64,000 nucleotides of DNA from a virus, in the IMG/VR virus record IMGVR_UViG_3300033145_000529, positions 1 to 64,000 of that record. One strand, 5' to 3'. The position numbers were made by a program, and so were the translations under genes. Shown piece after piece: positions 39,221-57,254 of the stretch; the first letter of the stretch is position 1, and every line of letters starts with the position of its first letter. The notes below the pieces were generated by a model. It did not search any database. It was given only the letters and a program-made list of their open reading frames with translations, and had not been told where the DNA came from.

Positions 39221-40824
39221 AAGAGAAAGTAACACTCAGTGAAGGTGACTTAGCAGTATTGGAAATAATAGAAGACCCCGTTTTATTTAGTGAATTTATT
39301 AGATGTACTGATGAAGAAATAGAGCAGGGAACAGGCTGGCATTATGACAACTATCAAAGAAAAATGCTGATTGACAGCTCACCTTATATTAGTATAGCTA
39401 CTGGTAGAACTACTGGTAAAACTGCTAGTATGGAAACTAAAATTATTCATACTGCCGTTTCAAACAAGTATAAAAAAGCTAGTGCTAACGAGATATTATT
39501 GGTAGTTCAGAACAAGGCACAGCTAGAACCCGTATTTTTACGTCTTATTAATTTCTTTAGGAGACATCAACTATTGAAGCACTTTGTTGATAGGCTTGGT
39601 GTCAATATGTCAAGTCATGAAATAAGGTTGTTGAATGGTTGCTTGATAAGGTGTAGAATTGTTGGTTCTACGGCGGACAGTAATGTTATTGGTCTTCACG
39701 TTCCATGTATATACGTTGATGAAGGTCAAGTTTTTAATTATGTAGCTTGGAATTCACTGATGCAGTGCTTAACCACATGGGATACTGTGGAATCCTGTGG
39801 TGCAGATTTCTTTCTTTGGGTGAGCGGAGTTCCTAATGGTCTTCGTGAAAAAAATGTTCTCTATGAGTGTGACCAAATTAATGAGAAGTTCTCACGTCAT
39901 AATGTGTCGAGATTAAGCAGTATTAGATATACAAAGCAGCAACATAAAACGGACTTGAAGCAGTATGGTGGTGAGAGCGGTGATGATTATGTTCATTTGG
40001 TTCTTGGGGAACATGGTTCACCCGCTTTCTCAGTATTTGACAGAAAATTGATGAGAATAGAGGATTATCCTGTGTCGGTGTCTATTTTGAATAATATTTC
40101 TTTAGACCAACATGATGGACAGTTTAATGACCTTTTAAGAGCACCAGACCTTCCTGCTGATATTCAAAAGAAATATGATTTAATAATAGCTGGAATAGAT
40201 GCGGGTTTCTCTAATGACCCAACAATTATTACTGTATTGTGGAGGGAGAAGGAAACTTTAACATGGCGAGAATTCGTTCGAATTGAACTGAGGAGAATTA
40301 AGTATCCATTGCAAGCGAAAATAATTAATTGGTTAGACACTATTTATGGATTTAACATGATAGCCGTTGATGCGGGACATTCTGGTTTGGCATTATGTCA
40401 AATATTACAAGATGAAGACGGGGATTTTAAGAGTAGGAACTATATTAAAAGGTTAATTCCAGTTGATTTCCAAGCGAATGTTGTTACTGGGTATGATGAG
40501 GATGAGAAAGAAATAAAGGATAGGGTAAGAAAATTTACAATCCAAACACTACAAAAGTGGAGTCAGAATGACCAAATAATTGCATTTTCTACGCAGGATG
40601 ATGATGTTATTTCTGAACTTGAGAGAGTTGGATTTACTAGGGATATGCTTGGGCAACCAAAATTCTTTGTGTATTCATCCCAAGGTGGTCAAAGAGGTGA
40701 AGACCACATACTTGCTTCTCTTTTGACATGGGTATATGGGTATTACTATAAGTATTACTCTCCTGAGAAACCAACTAAGGGCAAATACAGTGATTTGGTT
40801 CGGGGTGGATGGTTGGCTCGGTAG
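39217..40824 (+). CDS. terL: terminase large subunit
   Basis: YQ adenine motif, GRTTGKT, IYVDE, SGVP, nuclease AGIDAG..NDPT, EDH. Confidence 0.85.
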   Translation: MKEKVTLSEGDLAVLEIIEDPVLFSEFIRCTDEEIEQGTGWHYDNYQRKMLIDSSPYISIATGRTTGKTASMETKIIHTAVSNKYKKASANEILLVVQNKAQLEPVFLRLINFFRRHQLLKHFVDRLGVNMSSHEIRLLNGCLIRCRIVGSTADSNVIGLHVPCIYVDEGQVFNYVAWNSLMQCLTTWDTVESCGADFFLWVSGVPNGLREKNVLYECDQINEKFSRHNVSRLSSIRYTKQQHKTDLKQYGGESGDDYVHLVLGEHGSPAFSVFDRKLMRIEDYPVSVSILNNISLDQHDGQFNDLLRAPDLPADIQKKYDLIIAGIDAGFSNDPTIITVLWREKETLTWREFVRIELRRIKYPLQAKIINWLDTIYGFNMIAVDAGHSGLALCQILQDEDGDFKSRNYIKRLIPVDFQANVVTGYDEDEKEIKDRVRKFTIQTLQKWSQNDQIIAFSTQDDDVISELERVGFTRDMLGQPKFFVYSSQGGQRGEDHILASLLTWVYGYYYKYYSPEKPTKGKYSDLVRGGWLAR

Positions 40825-40838
40825 AGTGGAGATTTACG

Positions 40839-42341
40839 ATGGCAAATAAGGATAAAAAGAAAACTATAAGTAAAGTGATTACTGGAGAACTAAAACCAGG
40901 TAAACTAGTTAAAGCGGCAGTTAATATTTTGACAGACCCAACTCAAACTGGCTTGGTGTTCACTGAAGAAGTGGACAAGATGGCAATACCAAAAGATTAT
41001 CATAAATTGATAAAAACTTGTAGATTTTTTTACAAGCGTGACCCAATTGCTGGTACTGTTATGAACAAAATGGTTGATTGTGCCATTACTCCTCTGTCAA
41101 ACAAAAAGTCGGAGTGTAGTGATGAGGAGTACGAGGTTTACAATGCCCTAACTGAGATGCTTCAAGAATTCTTTAGAAATGTGTGCCTAGAATACCTACT
41201 CTCTGGTTTAGTTATTCCGCATTATGAGTGGGTGAGAATGAGGGGTAGCGAGCTTTCTCAGAAATTGAATTCTAGACGTAGAGTAACTGTTCCCAATAAT
41301 ATTTGGTTTAGAGACCCCGCAACGGTCACTGTTAAGAATTCAGTTATCCCAAATAAGAAATACTACTTTGTTGATGTTGATGCAAGAACTATATCTTTCA
41401 TTAAGAACAAGGGCAAATATCCTGATGGCACAGTTGATAAGGAGACATATAACGAGTTAGAAAAGAACTACCCCGCATTTGTAAAAGCGGTTCAAACTTT
41501 AAAAGGTACTAAGATGCAGATTAAACTAGAGGACATGAGACCCATTCTTGCTAAGACGCTTCCAGAGGAAGCATACCCAGTACCTTACATGGAAAATGCT
41601 TTGGAGTCCTTGATTCACAAGAGAAATTTGAGGAAAATGGATTATGCGATTGCGTCTAGGGTTGTTTCTGCTATTCAAATAATTAAGTTGGGTAGTGATG
41701 AGTTTCCATGTACAGATGAGACCGATTTTGACCACATTAAGAATCAAATGAATTATAGGACTTCTACAGGGTATCAAGAGAGAGTATATCAATTATTTGC
41801 TAATCATACTCTTAAAATTGAATGGGTATTTCCTGATACACAAGCTATGATAAACACTGAGAAGTATCGTGCTGTTGAGGATGACATAATTGCGGCATTC
41901 GGATTTCCTAGAACATTGATTACTGGTGAAACTTTAAGGTCTAATGTCCAAGGTGGTTCTGATTTTGCGGCATTCTCTCCTATTGCTACTATGGAAACTA
42001 TAAGAGATAGGTTACTTGAGTGGACTAAGGAATTGTACAAAGAAATTAGAGATAAGAATGAGTATATCAAAAATTATCCTATGCCTCAGTTTACACCAAT
42101 GAGACTTTACAGATTGATTGACCTTAACCTGATTGGTCAGTCTCTATACATGGAAGGCAATATTTCAAGGACATCAAGGCAAGAGCTTGTTGGTCTTGAC
42201 TTTGAAACTGAAATTGAGAGAAAGGTTCAAGAGGAGAAAGAGATGAAGGAGAAAGGCATTGACCCTGCTCCTGTATTACCGTTCTCTTCACCAAATATAC
42301 CAAATACTGGTAGAAATCCTCAACAAGATAAGGAGGAATAA
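40839..42341 (+). CDS. portal protein
   Basis: ~500 aa after TerL, AFGFP motif; start adjusted to MANKD. Confidence 0.75.
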   Translation: MANKDKKKTISKVITGELKPGKLVKAAVNILTDPTQTGLVFTEEVDKMAIPKDYHKLIKTCRFFYKRDPIAGTVMNKMVDCAITPLSNKKSECSDEEYEVYNALTEMLQEFFRNVCLEYLLSGLVIPHYEWVRMRGSELSQKLNSRRRVTVPNNIWFRDPATVTVKNSVIPNKKYYFVDVDARTISFIKNKGKYPDGTVDKETYNELEKNYPAFVKAVQTLKGTKMQIKLEDMRPILAKTLPEEAYPVPYMENALESLIHKRNLRKMDYAIASRVVSAIQIIKLGSDEFPCTDETDFDHIKNQMNYRTSTGYQERVYQLFANHTLKIEWVFPDTQAMINTEKYRAVEDDIIAAFGFPRTLITGETLRSNVQGGSDFAAFSPIATMETIRDRLLEWTKELYKEIRDKNEYIKNYPMPQFTPMRLYRLIDLNLIGQSLYMEGNISRTSRQELVGLDFETEIERKVQEEKEMKEKGIDPAPVLPFSSPNIPNTGRNPQQDKEE

Positions 42342-43021
42342 TGAGGGGAGTAGTTTTAGCGGGTGGTTTAGCTACTAGACTTAAACCGTTAAGTAATGTA
42401 CTTAATAAGCATTTGTTTCCAGTTTATGATTTACCAATGATTTATTACCCAATTAAAACATTGGCAGATGGTGGTATTAAAGATATTTTAGTGGTCATAG
42501 GAGAGAGGTCTGCTGGTGACATTGTTAGCCTATTACAAGATGGTTCTGAGTTAGGTGTTGATATAACATACAGATACCAAGGTGGTGGAGCACTAGGAAT
42601 AGCCCACGCACTAAACATAGCACGTGATTTTGTAGACGGTGATTTTACTCTTATTCTTGGTGACAACCTTTTCTTCGATACGCTTAATTTTACAGCGATG
42701 ACAGTACCTCATTTGTTTTTAACAAAATCAAATACACCAGAGAAGTTTGGTGTGGCAGAGATAGATGATGGCAAAATTATTCGTATTGTTGAAAAACCAA
42801 AAGAATTTGTATCGAATTTAATAGTTACAGGTCTTTATTTGTATCCTAGTAGCGTATTTGAGATTATTGATAGTTTAGAACCATCTACTAGGGGTGAATT
42901 TGAGATTACTGACCTTAATAATAAACTAGGAGGCTGTGACTATACTGTTATAGACAAGTGGTATGATGTCGGTGAGTACGACACTCTACTTGAAGCATCA
43001 AACCGTATAAAAGGAAGGTAA
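42341..43021 (+). CDS. rmlA: glucose-1-phosphate thymidylyltransferase (short form)
   Basis: LAGGLATRL.P...NKHL.PVYD.PMIYYP, LGDN, VEKP, RGEFEITD. Confidence 0.9.
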   Translation: MRGVVLAGGLATRLKPLSNVLNKHLFPVYDLPMIYYPIKTLADGGIKDILVVIGERSAGDIVSLLQDGSELGVDITYRYQGGGALGIAHALNIARDFVDGDFTLILGDNLFFDTLNFTAMTVPHLFLTKSNTPEKFGVAEIDDGKIIRIVEKPKEFVSNLIVTGLYLYPSSVFEIIDSLEPSTRGEFEITDLNNKLGGCDYTVIDKWYDVGEYDTLLEASNRIKGR

Positions 43022-43022
43022 T

Positions 43023-43487
43023 ATGATTTACGGAGTTAAAACTAAAAATCTTAAAATTATCCCAGATGAGCGTGGGTGGTTAATGGAGATTCTACGTAAA
43101 GATGATGATATATTTGAGAAGTTTGGGCAGGTGTACCTATCAGTAGCTTTTGCGGAGAGGGTAAAAGCTTGGCATTATCACAAGATTCAAACTGATAACT
43201 TTACTTGTGTACGTGGGATGATGAAGGTTGTTCTGTATGATGATAGGAAAGATTCTCCAACATTTGGTGAGTTGAATGAGTTTTTTATTGGTGATAAAAA
43301 CCCACTACTTATCAGCGTTCCACCGCTAGTGTGGCACGGGTTTAAAGCTGTTGATGAGTCGGCTTATTTTGTAAGTGTCCCAACATTACCTTATAATTAT
43401 GATGAACCAGACGAGTATAGGTTATCACCAGATACGGATACTATACCATACGATTGGGGGTTGGTAACTGGTTTAAAGCATGGGTAG
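43023..43487 (+). CDS. rmlC: dTDP-4-dehydrorhamnose 3,5-epimerase family
   Basis: DERG.L.E, KAWHYH, D.RKDSPTFG, WHGF. Confidence 0.88.
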   Translation: MIYGVKTKNLKIIPDERGWLMEILRKDDDIFEKFGQVYLSVAFAERVKAWHYHKIQTDNFTCVRGMMKVVLYDDRKDSPTFGELNEFFIGDKNPLLISVPPLVWHGFKAVDESAYFVSVPTLPYNYDEPDEYRLSPDTDTIPYDWGLVTGLKHG

Positions 43488-43494
43488 GTAAATT

Positions 43495-44376
43495 ATGAGT
43501 AAAATATTTGTGACTGGTGGAAGTGGATTGTTGGGTAGTAGAGTAGTAGAAGTGGCTAGGGAGTGTGGACACACTGTTATTTCTAGCTATTGTGATAACT
43601 ACCATAAAGGTGGTGTAAAACTTGATTTATTATTACCAGATGGTTTAGAACCAATATATTCTATAAAACCAGATGTTATAATACATACAGCAGGATTAAC
43701 AAATGTTGATAATTGTGAGGTAAACAAGGAACTGGCTTATAACATAAATGTTGAGGGTACTAGAAGAGTTGCATTTGCTGCTAGAAAATTAGATTGTTTT
43801 TTGGTAGGTATTTCTACTGACTATGTGTTTCCTGGACGAGACGGTGGTCTATACAAAGAAGAAGATAAGACACACCCAATAAACTATTATGGTTATACAA
43901 AGTTGGTCGGTGAGAATTTTTGTTCTAGTGTCGCAAGGTCTTGTGTAATATACGGGTCTATTCCGTCTAGTGGTAAAAAAGATAACTTTGTTCTGTGGAT
44001 TATAAACAATTTAACTGCTGGGAAAAAGATTAATCTTGCTATTGACCAATTTGTAACACCAGTACTAAACTATAATCTGGCTAGTATGCTACTAGAGGTA
44101 GTTAATAATAGAATAGAAGGTACAATTAACTTAGCTGGTGCTAATAGGATTTCTAGATATGACTTTGCAATAGCTATAGCAGAAAAATTTAAACTTAACA
44201 AGTGTTTACTACAACCAGTTACTATGGACGAGCTTCAATGGGTTGCTAAACGACCAAAAGACGCTTCGTTAGATACTACGAAGGCTTCTACTATACTAAA
44301 GGTGAAACCATACTATTTAGATGAGGCTCTAAGTAAATTAGAAAGCGACATGAGAGGTCAGATATGGAAAAAATAG
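43495..44376 (+). CDS. rmlD: dTDP-4-dehydrorhamnose reductase
   Basis: TGGSGLLG, TNVD.CE, ISTDYVF, PINYYG.TK..GE. Confidence 0.9.
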   Translation: MSKIFVTGGSGLLGSRVVEVARECGHTVISSYCDNYHKGGVKLDLLLPDGLEPIYSIKPDVIIHTAGLTNVDNCEVNKELAYNINVEGTRRVAFAARKLDCFLVGISTDYVFPGRDGGLYKEEDKTHPINYYGYTKLVGENFCSSVARSCVIYGSIPSSGKKDNFVLWIINNLTAGKKINLAIDQFVTPVLNYNLASMLLEVVNNRIEGTINLAGANRISRYDFAIAIAEKFKLNKCLLQPVTMDELQWVAKRPKDASLDTTKASTILKVKPYYLDEALSKLESDMRGQIWKK

Positions 44377-45296
44377 CCATTACTGGTGGTGCGGGATTTA
44401 TTGGCACAAACTTTGTTCATTATTTGTGTGAAAGGTATGATGCTAAGATTACTGTTTTTGATAAATTGACTTATGCTGGTAAGAGGGAAAACATTGCTGG
44501 ATTAGATATAAAGTTCGTCCATAAAGATATTTGTGATTTAATCGAAGATGATTTTGATGAGTACGATTGTCTTTACCACTTTGCGGCTGAGTCACACGTA
44601 GATAGGTCAATAACATCACCACATGATTTTCTGAATACTAATGTTTTAGGAACAGTAAACTTGCTAGAACTGTGTAAGAAGATTGGTGTTGGCAGGTTTA
44701 TATATATTAGTACAGATGAGGTATATGGTTCAGTTAGTGTTCCTAGTCGTGAGGTTGACATTCTTAGCCCATCATCTGCTTACTCTGCAAGTAAAGCATC
44801 TGCTGAGACGTTTTGTAATGCTTATTTAAAAACATTTAGAGTTCCTGTGATAATTACTAGAAGCTCTAATAATTATGGTCCTTATCAGCACGAAGAAAAG
44901 CTTATTCCTGTGGTTATTGGTAATGCTTTAAGGGATATGCAGATTCCAGTATATGGTACTGGTAATAATATTCGTGATTGGTTATTTGTAAAAGATAATT
45001 GTGAAGCTGTTGATTTTGTTTCTAGGAATGGTGGTGTAGGGGAGGTTTATAATATTGGGTCCAATAACCAAACTACAAACATTGAAATAATAACAGAAAT
45101 TTTAGGTGTTCTAGGGAAACCAACGAGTCTAATCTCATTTGTTGAGGATAGGTTGGGACACGATAGAGAGTACAGCCTTGATTGTTTTAAGATTAATAAA
45201 CTTGGTTGGAGAGCAAAGTATAATTTTAGAAAAGCCTTAAAGCAGACTTGTGAGTGGTATGAGCAAAGTTTCAGTAATAACACTAAGTTACAATAA
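44364..45296 (+). CDS. rmlB: dTDP-glucose 4,6-dehydratase
   Basis: TGGAGFIG, DKLTYAG, AAESHVDRSI, STDEVYG, YSASK, NNYGP. Confidence 0.93.
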   Translation: MEKIAITGGAGFIGTNFVHYLCERYDAKITVFDKLTYAGKRENIAGLDIKFVHKDICDLIEDDFDEYDCLYHFAAESHVDRSITSPHDFLNTNVLGTVNLLELCKKIGVGRFIYISTDEVYGSVSVPSREVDILSPSSAYSASKASAETFCNAYLKTFRVPVIITRSSNNYGPYQHEEKLIPVVIGNALRDMQIPVYGTGNNIRDWLFVKDNCEAVDFVSRNGGVGEVYNIGSNNQTTNIEIITEILGVLGKPTSLISFVEDRLGHDREYSLDCFKINKLGWRAKYNFRKALKQTCEWYEQSFSNNTKLQ

Positions 45297-45972
45297 ACCT
45301 CATCTTATTGGTGAGACAATAGATAGTATCTTAGGTCAAACACTTCAAGATATTGATCTTATTCTTGTTGATAATAGCACAACTAGTAAAGAAGAAGTTA
45401 GGTCTATATTAAGGTCTTATGAAAAGAAAGATAGTAGAATTAGATTATTTTATGAGAATCCAACAGAAGATGAACGAAAATACCAGTATGTGGGTGCTTT
45501 GTATACGAATAAATATATGGATATTGCTGAAGGACAATACTTGTACTTATTGGCTGATGATGATATAATCCTTCCTACTTGTCTACAAGAGTTATATGCT
45601 TGTGCTGAAGCTACCGATAGTCACTGTGCTTACCTAGGTCAAGATTGGGTAGTACCAGGTGAGGTGACAGGTACATGGTCTGTGTGGCAGCATCGTGAGT
45701 ACAACTATATATATGGTACAGCAGCACATTTTCACTGTTCGGGTATTTTGGGACAAAGTAGTGTGATATTTAGAAAGGATTGTTTATCCAAAATTGATAA
45801 ACCATATTTTCCCGTTGAGTGGGAAACAGCAACCATGTGTGACGGGTTGTTTTTGGATAAAATGGCTAAAGAATTCAAAATTTACCCACTTGGTAAAACA
45901 TTATGTATTATTAGGTTCTTTCATGGGAGCAATTTTTCATTGTTATCCCAGAAAGATGTGGTAGGAGAATAG
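45259..45972 (+). CDS. GT2 glycosyltransferase
   Basis: VSVITLSYN, LVDN, ADDD. Confidence 0.85.
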   Translation: MSKVSVITLSYNKPHLIGETIDSILGQTLQDIDLILVDNSTTSKEEVRSILRSYEKKDSRIRLFYENPTEDERKYQYVGALYTNKYMDIAEGQYLYLLADDDIILPTCLQELYACAEATDSHCAYLGQDWVVPGEVTGTWSVWQHREYNYIYGTAAHFHCSGILGQSSVIFRKDCLSKIDKPYFPVEWETATMCDGLFLDKMAKEFKIYPLGKTLCIIRFFHGSNFSLLSQKDVVGE

Positions 45973-45974
45973 GA

Positions 45975-46799
45975 ATGGAAGAGGTTATAATTGCTATCCC
46001 AACAATTAATAATTTGCAATATCTGAAGAAGTGTATAGAGTCAATTTGTTGCTCGTTTCCATATGAGTTATTGGTTGTGGATAATGGGTCTACAGATGAA
46101 ACGCTTAGTTGGCTTAAGGAAAATAAGATACCACATATCCATCATGACAAGAATTTTGGATGTTCTTATGCTAATAATGAGGCAATGGAGTATTCTTTTT
46201 CAAAAAATAAACTAGTTTTTATTATACATAATGATGTAATTTTGCATAAAAACTGTTTGGATAACCTATATCGTGGATTGACAGAGACAAGAGATTTTGA
46301 CTTGTTATTTGCATTGGAGCACCTAACTGGTAGAGTTAATCGAGAAGTGATGAAAGAGTTCAGATATAATTATATATTTGATAAAGACAATAAAGGGTTA
46401 CCAAATGAGAAAACTATTGAGTATACGGGGGCAAAAGCATCAAGGGGCATTAATTTCACCGTTAGAGCAATTAGGAAGACTGCCGTTGAAAAGGTTGGTT
46501 ATTTTGATGTTAATTACTTTCCCGCTTATTTTGAAGATAATGACTATGGTTTGAGATGTATTTTGGGCAAGGTTAATGTTGGTATTGTTCAAGCTGCTAG
46601 ATACTACCATTTTTGGAGTAGGAGTATACATGAGGGTGGGGTTGGTACATTGAATAGTAAATATTTTGGAGCAAACCAGACATTTTATAATAGAAAATGG
46701 GGTGGAGCTATTGGTAAAGAGACAATATTAGACCCGAATATTAAGCTTTTTAGGACTAGAGAGGAAGATTATGAGCTTATCAAAAACAAAGTCATTTGA
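45975..46799 (+). CDS. GT2 glycosyltransferase (rhamnosyltransferase-like)
   Basis: VVDNGSTD, HND, VGYFD..Y...YFEDND. Confidence 0.85.
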   Translation: MEEVIIAIPTINNLQYLKKCIESICCSFPYELLVVDNGSTDETLSWLKENKIPHIHHDKNFGCSYANNEAMEYSFSKNKLVFIIHNDVILHKNCLDNLYRGLTETRDFDLLFALEHLTGRVNREVMKEFRYNYIFDKDNKGLPNEKTIEYTGAKASRGINFTVRAIRKTAVEKVGYFDVNYFPAYFEDNDYGLRCILGKVNVGIVQAARYYHFWSRSIHEGGVGTLNSKYFGANQTFYNRKWGGAIGKETILDPNIKLFRTREEDYELIKNKVI

Positions 46800-47682
46800 C
46801 ATAGTAATGGTGACACCAAATGATGTGTGTATGAAGGCACTTGATTATGTGTTTAAGAATTCTGTACTTGACCATGACATTTATCTTATAGATAATGGTG
46901 CTACTGTACTGGGTTATGACTTGGGAAAGTATAAAGGTTTGATTAAGCTCTCTATACCACATGATACATTAAAAATTCCAGAAATATACAATCAAGCGTG
47001 GAAGCTTACAAAAACTAACTATGTGGCTTTTATACACAATGATACTATAGTATTAGAGCATGGTTGGGACGTTAAAGTTGAGAAATATTTTAACGATAAG
47101 ACGGCAGTTCTTGGATTCTCTGGTGCTACTGGGTATGGTAATGAGAATATATATGTGAGACCATTTGAAAATGCTGATGTAGCAAGGATAGATTTTCGTT
47201 GGAACTTTAATAACAAAGAGGTTAGAGAGTATGCTCTTGAGTGTAGCACTGGGTATGATGATGGTTGGTTGAGGAGTCATGGTAAGAACCTTGATGACGA
47301 GCTGATGGTGGCTTCTGTGGTTGATGGTCTTATTATGATTATAAGGCGTGAAGTATTCGAGAGAATTGGTGGGTTTGATGAGAGGTTTATCTTCCAAGGT
47401 TTTGATGAGAACCTGTGCTTACATGCTATATCTTTGGGGTATGATAATTATATGGTAAATATCAAGTACTTCCACGAGGGTAGCGGTGGGGCTAGTAGTT
47501 ACTTAAACCTGCTAAAAGCACATAACATGAATGACGAGATTGCTGTTGGTAGTCTTGAGGTAAAGAATGGTGTACACAGGGAAGCTTGCTTGTTGTTGTA
47601 TAATAATTGGAAAGAATTGTTGCCAATACGGAAATTGGGTGATACTTTGTGGCAGAGGGTTAGAAATGAAGAAGTCGTTTGA
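46771..47682 (+). CDS. GT2 glycosyltransferase
   Basis: LIDNG, HND, VDG, GGFDE; paralog of the next gene. Confidence 0.8.
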   Translation: MSLSKTKSFDIVMVTPNDVCMKALDYVFKNSVLDHDIYLIDNGATVLGYDLGKYKGLIKLSIPHDTLKIPEIYNQAWKLTKTNYVAFIHNDTIVLEHGWDVKVEKYFNDKTAVLGFSGATGYGNENIYVRPFENADVARIDFRWNFNNKEVREYALECSTGYDDGWLRSHGKNLDDELMVASVVDGLIMIIRREVFERIGGFDERFIFQGFDENLCLHAISLGYDNYMVNIKYFHEGSGGASSYLNLLKAHNMNDEIAVGSLEVKNGVHREACLLLYNNWKELLPIRKLGDTLWQRVRNEEVV

Positions 47683-48490
47683 TATTGTAATTGTTACCCC
47701 TAGTCTTAGTTATGTTAAGACTATTGATTCTATATTAGAGAATTCAACATTAGAGCACGATATTTACCTAATAGATAACGGTGCCAGTTACTTGGGAGTT
47801 GAGTTTGACAAGTATAAGGAATACGTCAAGTTGGTCATTCCTGATTGCAGTTTTTCGTTACCAACTGTTTATAATAGAGCTTGGAACATTACTAAAACCA
47901 ACTTTGTAGCCTTTTTACACAATGACATACTCGTTCTTGAGAATGGTTGGGACGAGAAAATTGAGAGGTATACAAAAGACCATATCGGTATTATCGGCTT
48001 TGCTGGAAGTACTGGTCTCGGAACTGCTGATATTTATAAAGCACCATTTAGGAATGACCAGTTAGTGAGAGTAGGATTTCATTGGAATTTTAACAGTCCA
48101 GACCTTAGAAAATTTGTCAATAAATTAGGTCCACCGTATTGTAATGAGTCATGGCTTAGGGTTCATGGTGTTTGTTTAACTAGAGAGTGGTTACAAGTTG
48201 CATCCGTTGATGGTTTAGCAATAATAGCTAATCGTAAACTGTTAGTATCTGGGGGGTTTGATGAGGAGTATTTATTTCACGGGTTTGATGATGATATGTG
48301 TATGAAATCATTAGACATCGGACTGGCAAATATAATTATCAATATTGGTTATTTTCATGGGGGTTGTGGTGGTAATTCTGGTCATATAGAAATGTTAAAA
48401 GTACACAACAAAGAAGAGTCGCAACTTCATGACGATGCTTGTTTAAGATTGTATAATAAATGGAGACATCTGCTACCAATTAGGTATTAG
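47666..48490 (+). CDS. GT2 glycosyltransferase
   Basis: Start adjusted to MKKSF; LIDNG, HND, GGFDE; tandem paralog. Confidence 0.8.
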   Translation: MKKSFDIVIVTPSLSYVKTIDSILENSTLEHDIYLIDNGASYLGVEFDKYKEYVKLVIPDCSFSLPTVYNRAWNITKTNFVAFLHNDILVLENGWDEKIERYTKDHIGIIGFAGSTGLGTADIYKAPFRNDQLVRVGFHWNFNSPDLRKFVNKLGPPYCNESWLRVHGVCLTREWLQVASVDGLAIIANRKLLVSGGFDEEYLFHGFDDDMCMKSLDIGLANIIINIGYFHGGCGGNSGHIEMLKVHNKEESQLHDDACLRLYNKWRHLLPIRY

Positions 48491-48499
48491 GAGACGGTA

Positions 48500-49222
48500 A
48501 TGGACCTAGTGTCAATAATAGTACCAACTTATAATCTTGGTGAAGCGTTGGTTGCTTATTGTATACCATCAATATTACGGCAAACGTATCAAAATTTTGA
48601 GGTGGTAGTTGTTGGTGATGGTTGTACGGATAATACTGAAGACCTTTTACGTAAGTTCAATGATAAGCGTATCCGCTTTGATAATACAATAATACACAAA
48701 CCACCGAGAAGTAAGAATGTCACTAGCGTTGTACCAGGTAATAGGGCTTTAGAGCTGGCACGTGGAGATTGGGTAGCAAGACTTGACGATGATGATATTT
48801 GGACTAAAGACCATCTCGAATTGTTGATAAACTTTGCTCTGGACAACAGGTATAACTTTGTTTATGGAATTCAAGATTGGCGGGGTTCTTTGGTAGGTAA
48901 TGATGCTTTTGGATGTGGTGATGTTGGTAACAGTGCTACCATGTATGACCTTAGAGTATTTGATGAGTTTAGGTACAACATTAATTCTGGAATTCCAGCA
49001 GATTGCGATATACGTGGAAGGATGCTTAAAACTGGAAAAATGGAGCACGGATTCTTACCAACAATAATAACCTATACTGCACCGAGAATAGCTGCGTGGG
49101 AAAAAAGATATTTAACTTACACTGATAGTGGTATAACACCTGTGTTATGGTCAATGAACCAAGCAACTGTGGTAAGATTAAAAGAACTAGGAGATGTTAA
49201 TGAGCAGACCAGAAGGTTATAA
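48500..49222 (+). CDS. GT2 glycosyltransferase
   Basis: VSIIVPTYN, GDGCTD, LDDDD. Confidence 0.88.
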   Translation: MDLVSIIVPTYNLGEALVAYCIPSILRQTYQNFEVVVVGDGCTDNTEDLLRKFNDKRIRFDNTIIHKPPRSKNVTSVVPGNRALELARGDWVARLDDDDIWTKDHLELLINFALDNRYNFVYGIQDWRGSLVGNDAFGCGDVGNSATMYDLRVFDEFRYNINSGIPADCDIRGRMLKTGKMEHGFLPTIITYTAPRIAAWEKRYLTYTDSGITPVLWSMNQATVVRLKELGDVNEQTRRL

Positions 49223-50336
49223 TTATTTGGAAATGTTAAAGGAGCATCTTGGTGGAAGTTTTGATTCTGTGTTCAACGGAAAACTTGTGTATCCAAGGCA
49301 ACTAGAAATACATCTACCTGGAGACCTTGTTAGACCATGTAATTTTAATTGTTATTACTGCCAAGGTGGCAAGATGGATAGGATACTATACCCATACGAG
49401 GAAGATGTGCTATGTTTGCTAGATAAGTTTGGTGATGATACTGTGGATAGTCTTGGTAGACACGCACCACCAGTACAGGCATATGGGGGTCAGTATAGTG
49501 AACCATTGCTTAACCCATATCTGTTGAAGCTTATGTTAAAGACAAAGGAGATAGGTTGTTCCTATGGTCTTCATACTAATGGTTCTTTGTTCTTGGACAG
49601 GGAAAATAAAGAAGGGTTTTTAACTAAGATAGTCGGGAATGCTAACTCCTCATTTGATTATATCACTATTAGTTTAGATGCGGGCAAACCAGAAAGTCAC
49701 CAAAGGATAAAAAACACCAAAATTAGTTGGTTTGAGACAATTATTGATGGAATTGCCAAAGCTTGTGAGATTAGGGGTAGTTCACCAACACCAGCAATAC
49801 GTATCGCTTACCTTATGACTGAAATTAATTCTTCATTTGAAGAACTGAGCGGAATGGTTGATATTGCTAAAAAGATAGGTGTTGACTCGTTACGTTTTTC
49901 TATACCGTATGATAACTATGGCAAAGAGTTTGGTAAGGTTCGTCAATATAAAGAAAAAGTTGAGTTACGGTGTAATGATGAATATAAGGAGTTAATTAAA
50001 CCGCTACTGTCGGGTGTTAAACCAGTTGTTTTCTATATTTCTCCAGAAAGTCAAGATGTTGATAGAATGATAATGTTTAAGCAGTGCATATATCCTTATT
50101 ATCAAACTAGTATTTCTTCGGATGGGTATATTTATAGGTGTTCTAGTACAGCGTCACCTAATTTTGCATTTAATCGTGTATCTGGTAGGGTTAGTGATGA
50201 TATGGATGATTTTCATGCAGCACTACTCCGTTCTCAGGACAAAGGTTGGAAACCAAGCACTTGTTTCAAGAACTGTGGACGTTGCAATAGATTAGCTGTT
50301 GAAATCAATAGTGAATGGATGAAATTAAATGACTAA
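49200..50336 (+). CDS. radical SAM enzyme with C-terminal Twitch/SPASM-like cysteines
   Basis: CNFNCYYC, GG..SEP, TNG, SLDA, C.YPY...DG.IYRC. Confidence 0.85.
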   Translation: MSRPEGYNYLEMLKEHLGGSFDSVFNGKLVYPRQLEIHLPGDLVRPCNFNCYYCQGGKMDRILYPYEEDVLCLLDKFGDDTVDSLGRHAPPVQAYGGQYSEPLLNPYLLKLMLKTKEIGCSYGLHTNGSLFLDRENKEGFLTKIVGNANSSFDYITISLDAGKPESHQRIKNTKISWFETIIDGIAKACEIRGSSPTPAIRIAYLMTEINSSFEELSGMVDIAKKIGVDSLRFSIPYDNYGKEFGKVRQYKEKVELRCNDEYKELIKPLLSGVKPVVFYISPESQDVDRMIMFKQCIYPYYQTSISSDGYIYRCSSTASPNFAFNRVSGRVSDDMDDFHAALLRSQDKGWKPSTCFKNCGRCNRLAVEINSEWMKLND

Positions 50337-50405
50337 ATTACATCGGTTGTGGTGCTCATACAGAGTTGTGTGTGTGAACTTTTCTCTGATAGTGGAGGCA
50401 ATAAA

Positions 50406-51035
50406 ATGAGAAGTGTACAAGATGTTTTAAGCAGCATACCAACGATTCATTCAATACAAGATTTGGAAGTATTGTGTGATAGTGTGGGGTTAATAGGGGA
50501 CAAAACTAAGGCTCTTATTAATGTTGGGTCTTACCGTGGAGGTTCGTCAGCGGCTTTATTAATTGGTATGGACTTGTATAGCGTAACAGGCGAATTATCT
50601 ATAGTAGGTCAATTCAGATACCATTCTCCTGGGGGTCCAGCGGCAGCTATACCAACACTAGATGCTACCTTTAGAGAGAGGAATATAGTGTGGACTGATT
50701 CTTTTCTTGGGGAGACTAAAGCAAACGTGGCTAAGTTCTCTGGTGATAGAAAAGTTAACTTTTTCCAAGGATTCTCTGATGACATTAATCTTGACCTTAT
50801 TGGGGGCACGTCTCTAATATTTTTGGATGCAGACCATTCAATACATGGCTGTTTACTAGATATATTGAAGTATACACAAAAACTAGTCGCTGGTGGTGTA
50901 CTGGTTCTTCATGATTGTGTACCAAGTTCATCGGTTGATAAAGCTTTACAAGTTTTTTTGACCATAAGACCAACCTTTAAGTCTGATGGACTTATTAAAG
51001 AAGGTAGTTCAATAGTAAGGGTGTGGAAAGGATGA
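50406..51035 (+). CDS. class I SAM-dependent methyltransferase
   Basis: VGSYRGGS, IFLDADH, GGVLVLHD. Confidence 0.75.
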   Translation: MRSVQDVLSSIPTIHSIQDLEVLCDSVGLIGDKTKALINVGSYRGGSSAALLIGMDLYSVTGELSIVGQFRYHSPGGPAAAIPTLDATFRERNIVWTDSFLGETKANVAKFSGDRKVNFFQGFSDDINLDLIGGTSLIFLDADHSIHGCLLDILKYTQKLVAGGVLVLHDCVPSSSVDKALQVFLTIRPTFKSDGLIKEGSSIVRVWKG

Positions 51036-51161
51036 TTTCACTACTTACACAACAAGTGGGAAAATATTAAGCAGAAAGGAGCAAGCAAATGAGTAGTTGT
51101 TACTAAACTTATTTCTGATGCTCCTATTGGGTATATATATTATTCAAAAGTAGGGGGAAGT

Positions 51162-52067
51162 ATGGTAAACATTGCTCTCATTGGTTACGGTTATTGGGGC
51201 AAACGTTTTTTGCGTTATATTGATGAAGAATTTAATGTAAAGTATATTTTTGGTCGTTCATTAGCCCCAGGAGGTAGGTTTATCAATGATTTAAATATAA
51301 TATGGGAAGACGATAGTGTTACATCTGTGGTAATTGCTACCCCCATTGACACACATTATGAAATAGTTAGAGAAGCAATACTTCATAACAAACATGTTCT
51401 TTGCGAAAAACCGCTATCACGCAGTAGCAAGCAAGTGTTAGAGCTTCTTGGTTTAGCTAGTGATAGGGGATTGAGACTAGTTACAGAGTTTACTTATACA
51501 TTTTCAAGAACTTTGCGTAAAGCACAACAACTCGTCAAGGATGGGTGTATCGGTGATTTAGAAGCAGTAGAGCTGTCACTAAAGTATTTAGCTGTTGGTG
51601 ATATAGCTAAAAATGATAAGTATACTAAGTTTAGTATAAATTGGTTACTGGCTTCACATCTGTTGGCTGTTCTTGACATGTTTACTCCACTGGGTGGGTT
51701 ACAGTTTAGTAAGATTCGTCTGATGAAGGAGACTAGTATCTTACCTTTTTATGGTGGGGCAAGGGGGTTTATTTATATTAGCTTCAATCATCCGAACAGA
51801 GAGGCTAGGGTGGTCATATACGGTAGCAACGGTACAATACTATGTGACCTCTTACAAAAACCAACATTGAAGGTTATTACATATGATAGAGTAGATGGTG
51901 GATTAACCAATGCGACAATTGTTGATGAAAAAGAATTCATATTCGATGAAACTAACAATTTGGAACAGGCTATTTGTTACTTTAAAGAGGCAATCACACA
52001 AAATCTTACTAATCTAAAATATAGAGATTTCTGGGTAACTAGTATTTTGGAGGGGCTTGATGGGTAA
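51162..52067 (+). CDS. Gfo/Idh/MocA oxidoreductase
   Basis: IGYGYWG, IATP..TH, KHVLCEKP. Confidence 0.88.
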   Translation: MVNIALIGYGYWGKRFLRYIDEEFNVKYIFGRSLAPGGRFINDLNIIWEDDSVTSVVIATPIDTHYEIVREAILHNKHVLCEKPLSRSSKQVLELLGLASDRGLRLVTEFTYTFSRTLRKAQQLVKDGCIGDLEAVELSLKYLAVGDIAKNDKYTKFSINWLLASHLLAVLDMFTPLGGLQFSKIRLMKETSILPFYGGARGFIYISFNHPNREARVVIYGSNGTILCDLLQKPTLKVITYDRVDGGLTNATIVDEKEFIFDETNNLEQAICYFKEAITQNLTNLKYRDFWVTSILEGLDG

Positions 52068-52611
52068 TATACGATTAGAGTTGGTAGATATTAAACATCT
52101 TGATAAGATGGTAGAGTGGAGAAATAAACCAAGAGTGTACTCTTCATTCTTTTCGGGGAAACCGTCCTCAATTGAGCAGCAGAAAGAGTGGTTTTATGGG
52201 CAAAGTGATAATGAAGAAAATTTTATCATTTGTTTTGATGACAAGATAAGTTTTTCTGTAGCACCTCCTGTGATAGCTACAAGATATATTGGAGCTATAA
52301 GTTTATATGACATTGATGATACCAATATGAGAGCAGAATTTGGAAGATTTTATATAGGTGATGATGATTATTTAGGTCGTGGTCTTGGTGAGGAAGCGTT
52401 GCTATTACTGCTTGATTATGGTTTTTATGACCTTATTCTTAATAAGATTTATGCTGATGTTTTTCCAACCAATGCTAAAATAATAAAATTATATCGCAAA
52501 GTTGGTTTTGTTGTTGAAACCATATTGATGCAGCACTATTTTAGTAGTGGTGAATTTATTGATGCTATTAGAATGACACTAACAAAGGAGAATTATTGTG
52601 GAGGAGATTAA
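52060..52611 (+). CDS. GNAT N-acetyltransferase (PseH-like)
   Basis: WRN, GRGLG, N..IIKLYRKVGF. Confidence 0.8.
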   Translation: MGNIRLELVDIKHLDKMVEWRNKPRVYSSFFSGKPSSIEQQKEWFYGQSDNEENFIICFDDKISFSVAPPVIATRYIGAISLYDIDDTNMRAEFGRFYIGDDDYLGRGLGEEALLLLLDYGFYDLILNKIYADVFPTNAKIIKLYRKVGFVVETILMQHYFSSGEFIDAIRMTLTKENYCGGD

Positions 52612-53704
52612 CTTATTCAAACCTAATATTACAGAAGAGTCTGTTCAAGGTGTTTGTGATGTTCTTAGGTCTGGTTGGATAGGATTAGGTCCTAAGACTA
52701 AAGAGTTTGAGCAGAAGTTCGCTGATTTTGTTGGGGCAAAGTATTGTGTTGCTCTTAACTCGTGTACCTCTGCTTTACATCTTACAATTAAACTACTAGA
52801 TACGAGTAGTGGTGATGACATTATTACTACTCCAATGACTTTTGTATCTACAAATGCGGTTATCTTGTACGAAAACCTTGTCCCCAACTTTGTTGATGTT
52901 GAGTATGGAACGTTAAATATAGATGTTGGAGAGATAGAAAAGTCTATTACTGATAAGACTAAGGCTATAATGTGTGTTCATTATGGTGGACAACCGTGTG
53001 ACATGGATGAGATATACCAATTAGCGGACAAGTATAAATTGAAGGTTATCGAAGATGCCGCACATGCTGTTGGTTCTACCTATAAAGGGAGAAAATTGGG
53101 GTCTGCTGATATGGCTTGTTGGAGTTTTCACGCAGTAAAGAACCTACCGATGGGTGATGGTGGGGCAATTACTTTGAACAACAAAGAAGATTATGAGCGA
53201 CTGTTAAAGCTACGTTGGATGGGGATTACCAAAGATACTTGGGAAAGGTCTAGTGATACACCAGGGGTTTACTCTTGGTACTATAACGTGGACGAGCTTG
53301 GTTATAAATATCATATGAATGACATTACCGCTGCAATTGGTCTCGGACAGCTTGGGGTATTGGAGGAACACAATAAGATACGAAGGAGAATTGTAGATAC
53401 TTATTTGTCACGCATAAATAACAGTAAGGTCATGTTTCCAGTATACAAGCAGGACAGAATTAGTTCTAATCATACATTTCATATTAAAGTAACCAATCGT
53501 GACAAACTATTGAAAGTGTTGCGTGATAGTGGTATAAATTGTGGTGTACATTATATTCCAAACCATACATTTAAACTATTTAACTATCAAAAATCTTTAC
53601 CAGTAGCGGAGGAAGTTTATGAGCAGGTAATACTTCTCCCATTGCATACTCTACTATCTGATGATGATATTAACAGAGTGTGTAGTGTGATAAATAATTT
53701 TTAG
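52598..53704 (+). CDS. DegT/DnrJ/EryC1/StrS sugar aminotransferase
   Basis: NSCTSALH, VHYGG, EDAAHA, SFHAVKNL..GDGG. Confidence 0.92.
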   Translation: MEEINLFKPNITEESVQGVCDVLRSGWIGLGPKTKEFEQKFADFVGAKYCVALNSCTSALHLTIKLLDTSSGDDIITTPMTFVSTNAVILYENLVPNFVDVEYGTLNIDVGEIEKSITDKTKAIMCVHYGGQPCDMDEIYQLADKYKLKVIEDAAHAVGSTYKGRKLGSADMACWSFHAVKNLPMGDGGAITLNNKEDYERLLKLRWMGITKDTWERSSDTPGVYSWYYNVDELGYKYHMNDITAAIGLGQLGVLEEHNKIRRRIVDTYLSRINNSKVMFPVYKQDRISSNHTFHIKVTNRDKLLKVLRDSGINCGVHYIPNHTFKLFNYQKSLPVAEEVYEQVILLPLHTLLSDDDINRVCSVINNF

Positions 53705-53873
53705 ATTAGAACGAGGAAGTCTTGTGAGGTTGGTCAGGTTTGGGAGTTTAATTTCAAGGAGACCAAATGAAAATATGTACAAAGTGCAATAAAGTTGAAA
53801 AGTGCGATTGTGGTTGCACAGAATTTCAATACTCCTTTTTTGGGAAGGAGAATAAAATAAAGAGGTGAATGGA

Positions 53874-54383
53874 ATGCCATACGGCATAAAAAATGAAACG
53901 CCAGAACAAACTAAGTGGATGGAGAAATGTGTTGATAGTATAACTGGCACTAACAAGAGAACTGATAAACCCTACACCAAAGGTGAAAAGATAGCGATTT
54001 GTAAAGTGCAGTTAAAGAAGAGAGGTTCTTCTGAGGCTTATAGCGAAGAAAGTCTTAGGGAGCAGTTCTACGACTTTGAGGATAAAATAAGAGATGCTCT
54101 TTCTCCTTCGTTGATGCGTGAGACACCATCATATGGTCCTTATGTAGTGGACATTTTTGATGATTGTGTTATCGTGGACAAGGGCAACAAGATGTATAAG
54201 TTATCTTATACAATTAAAGGTGACGATGTTTCTTTTGATTGGGGTAGTGCAGTTGAAGTTAAAAGAAGAACTGTTTATGAACCAGTAGAGGAAGCGGAGA
54301 GACAAATCGTAACGAAAGTTCCCCGCATTCCACAGAGGAATGGTGGAAGAATCGTAACTTTTGGTGGAAGAACAGTAAGTTAA
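53874..54383 (+). CDS. hypothetical protein, possibly head-associated
   Basis: GAGG RBS; position in the head module. Confidence 0.6.
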   Translation: MPYGIKNETPEQTKWMEKCVDSITGTNKRTDKPYTKGEKIAICKVQLKKRGSSEAYSEESLREQFYDFEDKIRDALSPSLMRETPSYGPYVVDIFDDCVIVDKGNKMYKLSYTIKGDDVSFDWGSAVEVKRRTVYEPVEEAERQIVTKVPRIPQRNGGRIVTFGGRTVS

Positions 54384-54395
54384 GGAGAGGTATAC

Positions 54396-55547
54396 ATGAA
54401 AGTTTTATGGATAGGTGATGCCCTCGTGCAGTCAGGGTTTAGCGTGGTGACGCATAGCATCTGTAATCAATTAGTTAATAAGTGTGATTTGGTCGTATAT
54501 GGTGTGCGTAATGATGGTAAATTGAGGCATAACGCTAATTATCACATATATCCAGGTCAACATTCTGAAGACATGTATGGTTTTGATTTTGCCGCACAAG
54601 TTGTGATGCAGGAAAATCCTGATATTGTCGTGCTGTTCAATGATGACCACATTGTTAATAGATACCTTGACGCTATTCGTAATGTGAGTAAGAAATATAA
54701 CAGTTCGGCTAGGATAGTTCCTTTGTTTCCTGTTAATCTGCTACCTGTTGGTAGAGATGTTATGCTTTACTTTACAGTGAAGGATATTGAGCAAGTTATG
54801 ACCTACACTAATTTCTCTAAACGTAAAATTGAAGAACTTAATCCGAACTTAAATGTTACTGCTATTTGTCACGGTGTGGATAGGAATTTATATTTTCCTA
54901 TACCCGATGCTAAAGAACAATTAGGAGTGGGAAAAGATTTTATTGTTGGCAATATCAATTCCAACACTTATAGAAAACGTCTTGATTTGTTACTAGAGGG
55001 ATTTGCCAAGTTTGCCAAGGGAAAATCTGATGTAAAATGTCTTATTCATGCTAATAATCCCGATATAGCATACGATTTACCAACTTTAGCAAAAGATTTT
55101 GGTATAATGGATAAAGTTATTCTTAGTACTGATAAACTAATTGTAGATAAGTTAAATGTTCTTTACAATGTAATGGATATTAACACTAATACAGCACTTG
55201 GAGAAGGATTTGGTTTATCACTTATTGAAGGAGCGGCTTGTGGTGTTCCCATCTTATGTACTGATAATGGTAATCTTAGAGATATTTGGGGCAAGAATGC
55301 TGATTACATTGAAATAGAACGCTCAGAGTATGTTGCTGGTTCTAAGTTTAAAGGTGATGTCATCAGTACTGATGATTTTGCTAAGAAGCTTAATAATTTC
55401 TATGAAGACCGTTCTTATCTATCAGAACGGAAAGAGAACATCTTTGAAGTTGGCAAAGACCCTAAATTTGATTGGTCAACTGTGGCAGATAAGGTTTTTA
55501 AGGTGATTACTACTGCGAACAGAGGAAAATTAGGTATTGTATCTTAA
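54396..55547 (+). CDS. GT4 (GT-B) glycosyltransferase
   Basis: SGF..V, HGVD, RKRLD, EGFGLSLIEGAACGVP. Confidence 0.88.
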   Translation: MKVLWIGDALVQSGFSVVTHSICNQLVNKCDLVVYGVRNDGKLRHNANYHIYPGQHSEDMYGFDFAAQVVMQENPDIVVLFNDDHIVNRYLDAIRNVSKKYNSSARIVPLFPVNLLPVGRDVMLYFTVKDIEQVMTYTNFSKRKIEELNPNLNVTAICHGVDRNLYFPIPDAKEQLGVGKDFIVGNINSNTYRKRLDLLLEGFAKFAKGKSDVKCLIHANNPDIAYDLPTLAKDFGIMDKVILSTDKLIVDKLNVLYNVMDINTNTALGEGFGLSLIEGAACGVPILCTDNGNLRDIWGKNADYIEIERSEYVAGSKFKGDVISTDDFAKKLNNFYEDRSYLSERKENIFEVGKDPKFDWSTVADKVFKVITTANRGKLGIVS

Positions 55548-55632: not shown

Positions 55633-55681
55633 AACCAAACGTGTTTTGTGCCCGTTTGGGCAAGTTAACGGAGTATTGAGT

Positions 55682-57252: not shown

Positions 57253-57254
57253 AA

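Follow-up and report, generated by a model that had tools for sequence, protein, structure and literature searches.

What are genes for making and joining sugars doing between the portal and head genes of a tailed phage? The question arises from a 64,000-nucleotide stretch of DNA from an uncultured phage (positions 1–64,000 of IMG/VR virus record IMGVR_UViG_3300033145_000529; hereafter the window), which is the first 64 kb of a 148,197-bp record that CheckV rates as complete. A preliminary description of the window had noticed a block of sugar genes at 42341–55547 and had taken it for a pathway that glycosylates virion proteins. It recognized the gene block and missed the main feature of the locus, which is that the block is hypervariable and exchangeable. 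The cassette occupies the 11.5 kb from 42,300 to 53,860 and has sharp edges. It is accompanied by two GT4-family glycosyltransferases, GT4a and GT4b, which are encoded outside it, and the second of these is a widespread core gene of the head–tail module. The best-supported interpretation is that the cassette and the two GT4 proteins form a phage-encoded, cytoplasmic glycosylation system for virion proteins. We place its probability only slightly above even because we infer both the acceptor and the timing of expression.

The edges of the cassette emerge from comparison with IMG/VR relatives, in which the terminase and portal proteins are 62–89% identical and the head genes 37–90% identical. 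On the left, DNA identity with the nearest relatives ends at 42292–42298, about 45 bp before the portal stop codon; on the right, identity with the nearest relative restarts at 53861, 4 bp before an open reading frame (ORF) for a 172-residue protein. Twelve relatives retain both flanks, and in each of them the site, 4–13 kb long, has a content other than that of the window, with at least five cassette types among the twelve islands. The preliminary description had proposed this synteny comparison. The nearest relative has an 89% identical portal and, for all 14 cassette genes, no homologue at 50% identity or above; at this site it encodes a GDP-mannose 4,6-dehydratase, a NUDIX protein, a GNAT, an FkbM methyltransferase, another DegT protein and a sugar C-methyltransferase. 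Among 83 island proteins from eight relatives, the dominant classes are SDR dehydratases or epimerases, methyltransferases, RmlD-like reductases, nucleotidyltransferases, GT2 glycosyltransferases, radical SAM/SPASM proteins and GNATs, together with class-III aminotransferases and thiamine pyrophosphate-dependent enzymes. Three MptE/Maf-like entries in this tally could not be relocated in the five close relatives G001–G005 and are not used here. The smallest cassette type, present in five contigs, encodes a TagF-like glycerophosphotransferase, methyltransferases, a cytidylyltransferase–GNAT fusion and an aminotransferase, with a sulfotransferase additionally in one of the five.

Cassettes are also recombined internally. 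Two contigs from other samples (L004 and L005) have the same portal-to-RmlA junction as the window, at 81% DNA identity, and share RmlB, and they lack RmlC and RmlD, indicating that modules are shuffled. In one pair of relatives four cassette genes are 83–88% identical (the others 33–69%) and the adjacent 172-residue core protein is 57% identical; in another pair cassette genes reach 84% identity and the portal 63%. Such like cassette types on diverged backbones would fit lateral exchange. In distant relatives the head genes follow the portal directly or after one small ORF, and so the portal-side cassette is an insertion specific to a subgroup of phages with genomes of 130–150 kb. Basilisk and MaeS, which belong to the same capsid family, likewise have no cassette between the portal and head genes.

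These comparisons bear on one alternative, that a host polysaccharide locus was misjoined into a phage contig during assembly. The record consists of one metagenomic contig and carries a poly-G run at either end (45 G at 1–45 and 24 G at 148170–148193); these runs are probably sequencing or assembly artefacts in their own right and leave the true genome ends undefined. However, the portal-to-RmlA junction recurs in the two independent contigs L004 and L005, all relatives carry some cassette in this position, and the tetranucleotide usage of the island correlates at 0.90–0.92 with that of the rest of the phage. Moreover, the best cellular homologues of RmlB are only about 50% identical and are scattered over archaea, Clostridia, Terriglobia and others, which also means that the host cannot be inferred from RmlB. 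We assign a misjoin negligible probability.

The cassette lies within a long co-directional array. The + strand holds nearly all genes from about 27 kb to 121 kb of the record, in the order ribonucleotide reductase (RNR), two small genes, terminase large subunit (TerL), portal, sugar block, head genes, tape measure and tail proteins. TerL (39217–40824, +) is identified by a tblastn match to the annotated TerL of Caudovirales GX15bay (1e-9) and is 74–88% conserved in relatives. The portal protein, which is the left conserved flank (40809–42341, +), matches phrog_2739 (1e-7) and is 24% identical to Basilisk gp33, and the tape measure protein is encoded at 67321–70917 (+; E = 1e-31). The positions of TerL, portal and tape measure place the sugar block inside the structural operon. 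Its 14 co-directional genes directly follow TerL and portal, and the portal stop codon TAA (42339–42341) shares one base with the ATG of the first sugar gene, with GGAGG upstream, in agreement with the tight coupling reported earlier. A scan for promoter and terminator signals gave nothing above chance, so the timing of expression is not readable from such signals.

Which sugars might the cassette make? Gene families were called with Pfam and NCBIfam, applying the NCBIfam equivalog cut-offs, and every gene named in the preliminary description was recovered at its coordinates; all cassette genes are on the + strand. The first four had been read as a complete RmlABCD set making dTDP-L-rhamnose. 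Only RmlB, a dTDP-glucose 4,6-dehydratase (44364–45296), exceeds its equivalog cut-off (TIGR01181, 378.9 bits against 365.1). The short RmlA-like sugar-1-phosphate thymidylyltransferase of 226 residues (42341–43021; PF00483 NTP_transferase, 4e-48) has two rmlA models as its best NCBIfam matches (187 bits, cut-off 320; 178 bits, cut-off 361), and the RmlD-like dTDP-4-dehydro-6-deoxyhexose reductase (43495–44376; PF04321 RmlD_sub_bind, 2e-56, 191 bits) reaches 200.5 bits with TIGR01214 against 224. The RmlC assignment does not hold at equivalog level: this cupin, a dTDP-4-keto-6-deoxyhexose epimerase or isomerase (43023–43487; PF00908, 4e-15), scores 37.9 bits with TIGR01221, far under the cut-off of 155.75, and is assigned at the Pfam superfamily level alone. 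Its closest solved structure is 3ejk (3e-24), an uncharacterised ‘dTDP sugar isomerase’. The RmlA-like protein and RmlB are thus predicted to yield dTDP-4-keto-6-deoxyglucose, which the RmlC-like and RmlD-like pair may convert to dTDP-L-rhamnose, one of several possible products, or to another 6-deoxyhexose.

The downstream end of the cassette encodes a second set of sugar-modifying enzymes. A Gfo/Idh/MocA sugar oxidoreductase (51162–52067; PF01408, 6e-14), with weak NCBIfam matches to sugar 3-dehydrogenases, is followed by a PseH-like GNAT N-acetyltransferase (52057–52611; PF13302, 5e-19; TIGR03585 PseH, 65.7 bits against a cut-off of 93) and by the last gene of the variable cassette, a DegT-family sugar aminotransferase (52598–53704; PF01041, 5e-107) whose best NCBIfam models are PseC, ArnB and WecE, each under its cut-off. 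From these resemblances the PseC/WecE-like DegT protein and the PseH-like GNAT are predicted to make a 4-acetamido-4,6-dideoxyhexose. Upstream of them lie a class I SAM methyltransferase (50349–51035; PF13578 Methyltransf_24, 6e-8) and a radical SAM enzyme of a phage-enriched family (49194–50336; PF04055, 6e-9) in which the CxxxCxxC motif reads CNFNCYYC. The nearest Atlas clusters of the radical SAM enzyme are mostly viral radical SAM/SPASM proteins; it shows no relation to the other radical SAM enzyme encoded in the genome, and its role is presumed to be sugar tailoring.

Between the two sets of sugar enzymes lie the glycosyltransferases of the cassette. Five GT2 enzymes had been counted, of which three are clear Glycos_transf_2 proteins (PF00535), at 45250–45972 (7e-16), 45975–46799 (9e-18) and 48500–49222 (2e-25, with a weak Rhamno_transf match too). 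The other two are tandem paralogous GT-A-like genes (46771–48490, with starts at 46771 and 47567) that are 45% identical to each other and barely exceed the cut-off of 27 for PF13712 Glyco_tranf_2_5, at 27.5 and 30.3 bits. The GT2 at 45975–46799 is recurrent, with homologues at 24–42% identity in the cassettes of many relatives and upstream of TerL in distant relatives.

The two GT4 genes behave differently from the cassette. The island had been drawn as far as 55547, a range that covers the 172-residue ORF (53865–54383, +) and the gene for GT4a (54396–55547, +). Its left part stands, whereas on the right the variable island stops at about 53,860. The 172-residue ORF is the conserved right flank, present in 12 loci of close relatives, and belongs to the conserved head block, as does GT4a in all but one relative: GT4a follows the 172-residue ORF in eight relative loci and is absent from G003. 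GT4a (PF00534, 8e-13; EX7E motif, EGFGLSLIE) and GT4b (60996–62306, +; phrog_2170, 2e-41; EX7E motif, EGFGLSPFE) are paralogues with 28% identity (2e-50), and both are encoded outside the variable cassette. The closest solved structure to each is B736L of chlorovirus NY-2A (6e-19 for GT4a; 4e-24 for GT4b, for which it is the only PDB match).

GT4b has at least 585 relatives among IMG/VR contigs, of which 80 loci were kept for comparison. The 16 of these loci that contain portal and capsid homologues (capsid 41–49% identical) all have the same gene order: TerL, portal, a protease-like gene, a 204-residue gene, capsid, two small head genes, GT4b and more head–tail genes. In all 16 distant loci GT4b keeps its position between two head-completion genes (h162 and h149), and a major-tail candidate, chaperones and the tape measure come next wherever the retrieved DNA extends. 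GT4b is a syntenic core gene of the head–tail module in a wide group of uncultured siphophages, and its earlier placement among head-completion genes is confirmed. The neighbourhood of the gene is less constant. Other genes occupy the slot before GT4b in three distant relatives (L150, L151 and L181), including a GT1-family gene and a sulfotransferase in L181, and some other distant relatives have GT2 and DegT genes just upstream of the terminase.

Two cultured phages carry related arrangements. In Synechococcus phage S-CBS4, gp013–gp016 include a GT4b homologue (35% identical), a second glycosyltransferase and a SAM methyltransferase between the portal and the head protease and capsid, in the order portal, small protein, GT4, second glycosyltransferase, methyltransferase, head protease and capsid. 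Unlike the cassette described here, that block comprises three glyco-genes only and no donor pathway; we found no functional study of these genes in the literature. Tetrasphaera phage TJE1 has a GT4 homologue with a nucleotidyltransferase, an epimerase and a methyltransferase.

To what, then, would the sugars be attached? A hydropathy scan, which serves as the membrane check suggested for the glycosyltransferases, detects a transmembrane (TM)-like segment in none of the cassette proteins or GT4s; across the 148 kb no protein has more than three such segments and none counts as polytopic, in line with the earlier statement that no flippase, polymerase or lipid-carrier transferase is visible. 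Soluble enzymes would suit virion proteins as substrates, and would also suit remodelling of a host surface polymer. In that case the glycosyltransferases would act on host undecaprenyl-linked O-antigen, capsule or teichoic-acid intermediates, which host transporters would export, and the altered surface of the infected cell might block superinfection or reduce sticking of progeny to debris. Such pathways normally use GT2 and GT4 enzymes that have no TM helices, TarP, a teichoic-acid glycosyltransferase of a prophage, is among the best PDB matches of the recurrent GT2, and the small cassettes of relatives encode the TagF-like glycerophosphotransferase and the sulfotransferase. As in O-antigen and capsule loci and serotype-converting modules, variable sugar genes, glycosyltransferases and tailoring enzymes form a block with conserved flanks, there is shuffling of modules, and one cassette type can be found on backbones that have diverged.

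Unlike those loci, however, the cassette sits in a virion morphogenesis operon, among head–tail genes, and no initiating phosphoglycosyltransferase, Wzx flippase, Wzy polymerase, ABC transporter or integrase was found with it. With no polytopic membrane protein of its own, the phage would depend on the host for initiation, flipping, polymerisation and export. The genome gave no match to the tyrosine integrase family (PF00589) in a search whose control matched in 14 of 14 genomes and which did not cover serine recombinases, and the genomes of relatives end in direct terminal repeats, as is typical of virulent phages. GT4b, moreover, is fixed as a core gene in phages of quite different gene content, which a host-surface role, depending on the polymer of each host, would hardly explain. 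We consider surface remodelling unlikely.

DNA is another potential acceptor. In this explanation the cassette would build glycans on phage DNA just before packaging, as protection against restriction, and an arms race with modification-dependent nucleases would account for its variability. Two reports describe phage GT-A and GT-B enzymes that attach diverse mono- to trisaccharides to DNA (10.1101/2023.12.21.572611; PMC13326640), and one of them describes such transfers as late, up to the time of packaging (PMC13326640). The cassette adjoins the terminase and portal genes, a class-II-like RNR gene (36271–38313, +) lies 4 kb upstream, and the rmlBACD genes of phapecoctaviruses, which adjoin RNR genes, are suggested to provide dTDP-rhamnose for DNA glycosylation (PMC7552041). 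However, the known routes to DNA glycosylation, as set out in the same two reports, require a hydroxylated base and begin with a ThyA homologue or with a C5-methylase and a TET-type oxygenase to make it (10.1101/2023.12.21.572611; PMC13326640). Neither a ThyA-like protein (PF00303) nor a C5-DNA methylase (PF00145) has a match in the 148-kb genome in searches with working positive controls; TET/JBP (PF12851) also has no match, in a search whose positive control was likewise silent.

Among ten related genomes that keep GT4b, seven have no ThyA-like gene; the three that do are among the five close relatives, where the gene is far from the cassette, and none is among the five distant ones. The three are short ORFs (213–223 residues) at G003:C1:89328-89564, G004:C1:20079-20312 and G005:C1:43691-43915, and no such ORF was found in G001, G002 or the genome studied here; they may encode either thymidylate synthases or base hydroxymethylases. 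GT4b lies among head-completion rather than replication genes, and the glycosyltransferases cluster with packaging, head and tail genes, whereas the polymerase, RecA and a separate Mom-type module are 35–60 kb away. Neither GT4 matched the T4 DNA glucosyltransferases in a PDB search. Together these points make DNA hypermodification quite improbable. The Mom-family protein itself (PF25680, 3e-53) is encoded after two DruA-like proteins (PF14236), with which it forms a candidate separate DNA-modification module (record 98388–101765, L194:14389-17766), and is followed by a Holliday-junction-resolvase-like endonuclease with a trace of LAGLIDADG, near a family A polymerase and RecA.

A last set of acceptors comprises other soluble molecules, such as a non-structural phage or host protein or a small molecule, which when glycosylated could serve as a decoy or an inhibitor of host defence. 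Natural-product pathways, too, contain genes that tailor deoxy-, amino- and C-methyl-sugars, and one Pfam match of GT4a, below its cut-off (1e-4), is to ‘GT4 in conflict systems’. No genes for biosynthesis of an aglycone or scaffold lie nearby, however, and the conserved position in the head–tail module argues for a virion-related role. This explanation appears very improbable.

Virion proteins remain the acceptors we favour, and the pathway could work as follows. GT4b, together with GT4a in most of the subgroup, would begin the glycan by attaching first or core sugars to at least one structural protein, and the exchangeable cassette would provide the donors and the elongating enzymes. The RmlA-like protein and RmlB would generate dTDP-4-keto-6-deoxyglucose; the RmlC-like cupin and RmlD-like reductase would turn this into dTDP-L-rhamnose or another 6-deoxyhexose; and the DegT protein and GNAT would supply an N-acetylated amino-dideoxyhexose. 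Sugars would be tailored by the oxidoreductase, radical SAM enzyme and methyltransferase, and the chain extended by the five soluble GT-A enzymes. Because relatives hold different cassettes at the same site, each phage lineage may display its own glycan, much as bacteria have O-antigen serotypes. A more specific form of the idea, which we put forward tentatively and at somewhat less than an even chance, is that the locus determines a virion serotype: an O-antigen-like cassette in the head operon would make a lineage-specific capsid or tail glycan on a GT4-made core, and would be swapped between diverged backbones under diversifying selection, which might come from host defences that recognise glycans, from grazers or from rival phages.

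Glycosylation of virion proteins is partly supported by the position in the head–tail operon, the soluble products, the absence of export machinery and integrase, the lack of matches to the enzymes that known DNA-glycosylation routes need, the separate Mom-type module, the core status of GT4b and the S-CBS4 analogue. The genomic context thus lends partial support to the earlier proposal of late, cytoplasmic glycan synthesis for virion proteins, the lateness of which we infer from gene order. Several observations weigh against it. The protein acceptor is itself deduced from that context. Peripheral glycosyltransferases that lack TM segments also commonly serve O-antigen and teichoic-acid synthesis, acting there on lipid-linked intermediates of the host, so that the absence of TM segments is no proof of a protein acceptor. 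A tblastn search of 50,697 phage records with GT4b and the recurrent GT2 gave no match in a Mycobacterium phage. The RNR gene upstream of the cassette, with its phapecoctavirus parallel (PMC7552041), points in the direction of DNA, and B736L has no known acceptor either (PMC9614988).

The putative capsid protein adds a further point on that side. The gene at 57933–58865 (+) is assigned as the putative major capsid gene from distant homology: an alignment covering 95% of its product shows 24–27% identity to Basilisk gp36 and its relatives, and the product matches phrog_16565 (2e-15). Work on Basilisk takes gp36 to be the putative capsid protein, in an HK97-like head with T=9 (PMC6145125). In the ESM-Atlas the nearest clusters bear the names ‘phage capsid protein’ or YonB, the AlphaFold2 model has a predicted local distance difference test (pLDDT) score of 31, and an hhalign comparison of the capsid profile with the S-CBS4 major head protein gave no match. 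Residues 196–208 (window 58518–58556) are hypervariable and rich in Thr, Ser, Ala, Gly and Pro, the rest of the protein being 80% identical across relatives, and a five-residue insertion near residue 142 is present in this phage only. The variation of the loop does not co-vary with cassette type and tracks phylogeny instead.

Glycosylation of virions has been established in a few actinobacteriophages and in giant eukaryotic viruses, and to our knowledge it uses in phages only a few phage-supplied transferases. In mycobacteriophages a few phage glycosyltransferases reportedly work with host sugar donors. Two papers summarise work (Freeman et al. 2023) in which phage glycosyltransferases glycosylate the virions of mycobacteriophages Che8, Corndog and Myrna (PMC12363180; PMC12619734); there, glycosyltransferases and a methyltransferase are associated with virion genes, and capsid and tail-tube subunits are glycosylated in the cytoplasm. 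The locus described here resembles that type in having glycosyltransferase genes within or beside the structural genes. It differs in encoding full nucleotide-sugar pathways and seven glycosyltransferases, in having a cassette that is hypervariable at a fixed site, in being known from its genes alone, and in that the glycosyltransferases tested show no detectable homology to the proven virion glycosyltransferases Che8 gp110 and Corndog gp38.

Giant viruses offer another parallel in gene content. The capsid glycans of chloroviruses and the glycogene clusters of Mimivirus, which are clade-specific (PMC9614988), likewise involve virus-encoded pathways for rare bacterial-type sugars (rhamnose and viosamine-type amino sugars), glycosyltransferases and methyltransferases in clusters that differ by lineage, and both GT4s have their closest solved structure in a chlorovirus protein. 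Those viruses are eukaryotic and use individual promoters, whereas here a bacterial-type operon lies in a tailed-phage head module, and exchange is far finer-grained, in that relatives whose portals are 89% identical have no close cassette gene in common. The phapecoctaviruses ESCO13 and phAPEC8, which are cultured, lytic and about 150 kb in size, also encode RmlB, RmlA, RmlC and RmlD together (PMC7552041). Their rml genes are conserved, lie among nucleotide-metabolism genes and have no glycosyltransferase genes next to them, in contrast to the variable genes, seven glycosyltransferases and structural operon here. In Escherichia phage ESCO13 (NC_047770.1 33046–36324; L197:8953-12231) the four genes form a row right after the RNR genes, with no glycosyltransferase beside them; homologues of RmlB occur in 146 phage records.

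We found no published description of a portal-side sugar cassette of this kind. The hypervariable, sharp-edged cassette, the location of the GT4 genes outside it and the status of GT4b as a wide core gene are new here. An environmental phage family appears to spend up to 9% of its genome on its own rare sugars, and the whole set of sugar genes changes between close relatives while the site stays fixed. If the glycan is on the particle, phage surfaces would come in glycan serotypes, like bacterial surfaces, natural selection would act on phage surface sugars, and the conserved GT4 would mark a large unnoticed set of glycosylated phages (the IMG/VR contigs counted above). The cassettes would also be compact sets of soluble enzymes that could be used in rare-sugar synthesis and protein glycoengineering. 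Were the target DNA, the locus would hold a new DNA-glycosylation chemistry; were it a host polymer, it would represent an envelope-remodelling strategy of lytic phages.

The remaining genes around the cassette are mainly those of the head. The 172-residue protein of the right flank is probably a head-morphogenesis protein; its AlphaFold2 model has a pLDDT of 64, and BFVD matches are weak (best E = 2e-3) and to parts of prohead proteases. Profile searches of PDB sequences gave no match for this protein or for the capsid protein, and the head proteins had no family match in Pfam at E values up to 1. The first ~55 residues of the 172-residue protein (window 53865–54040; PYG...WME.CV...AICK) recur at 58–77% identity on shorter, different proteins in unrelated phage contigs (L213:10001-10327 and L214:10001-10327), so that this N terminus looks like a portable module. 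The gap between the DegT gene and the 172-residue gene is filled by a 33-codon Cys-rich ORF (window 53767–53868, +) with six Cys in the pattern CxxCx5CxCxC; it overlaps the start of the 172-residue gene and adjoins, on the left, the point where similarity to relatives resumes.

Three conserved head-assembly genes (55646–57869, +), encoding proteins of 210, 325 and 204 residues, are syntenic between the portal and capsid genes in close and distant relatives. In distant relatives the first two (55646–57252) together correspond to one protein of 310–390 (about 350) residues encoded right after the portal, the N-terminal part of which matches the 210-residue gene and the C-terminal part the end of the 325-residue gene; the arrangement in this subgroup would reflect either a split gene or a large insertion. 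Just before GT4b, a second variable slot holds a metallophosphoesterase gene (60104–60841, +; PF00149, 3e-13), which close relatives also have; among the 80 GT4b loci just 3 contain it. One relative, of 90 kb, has a GT4b homologue (L215:16502-18841) of 779 residues, with two halves that are 59–63% identical to GT4b and between them a large insert, possibly an intein.

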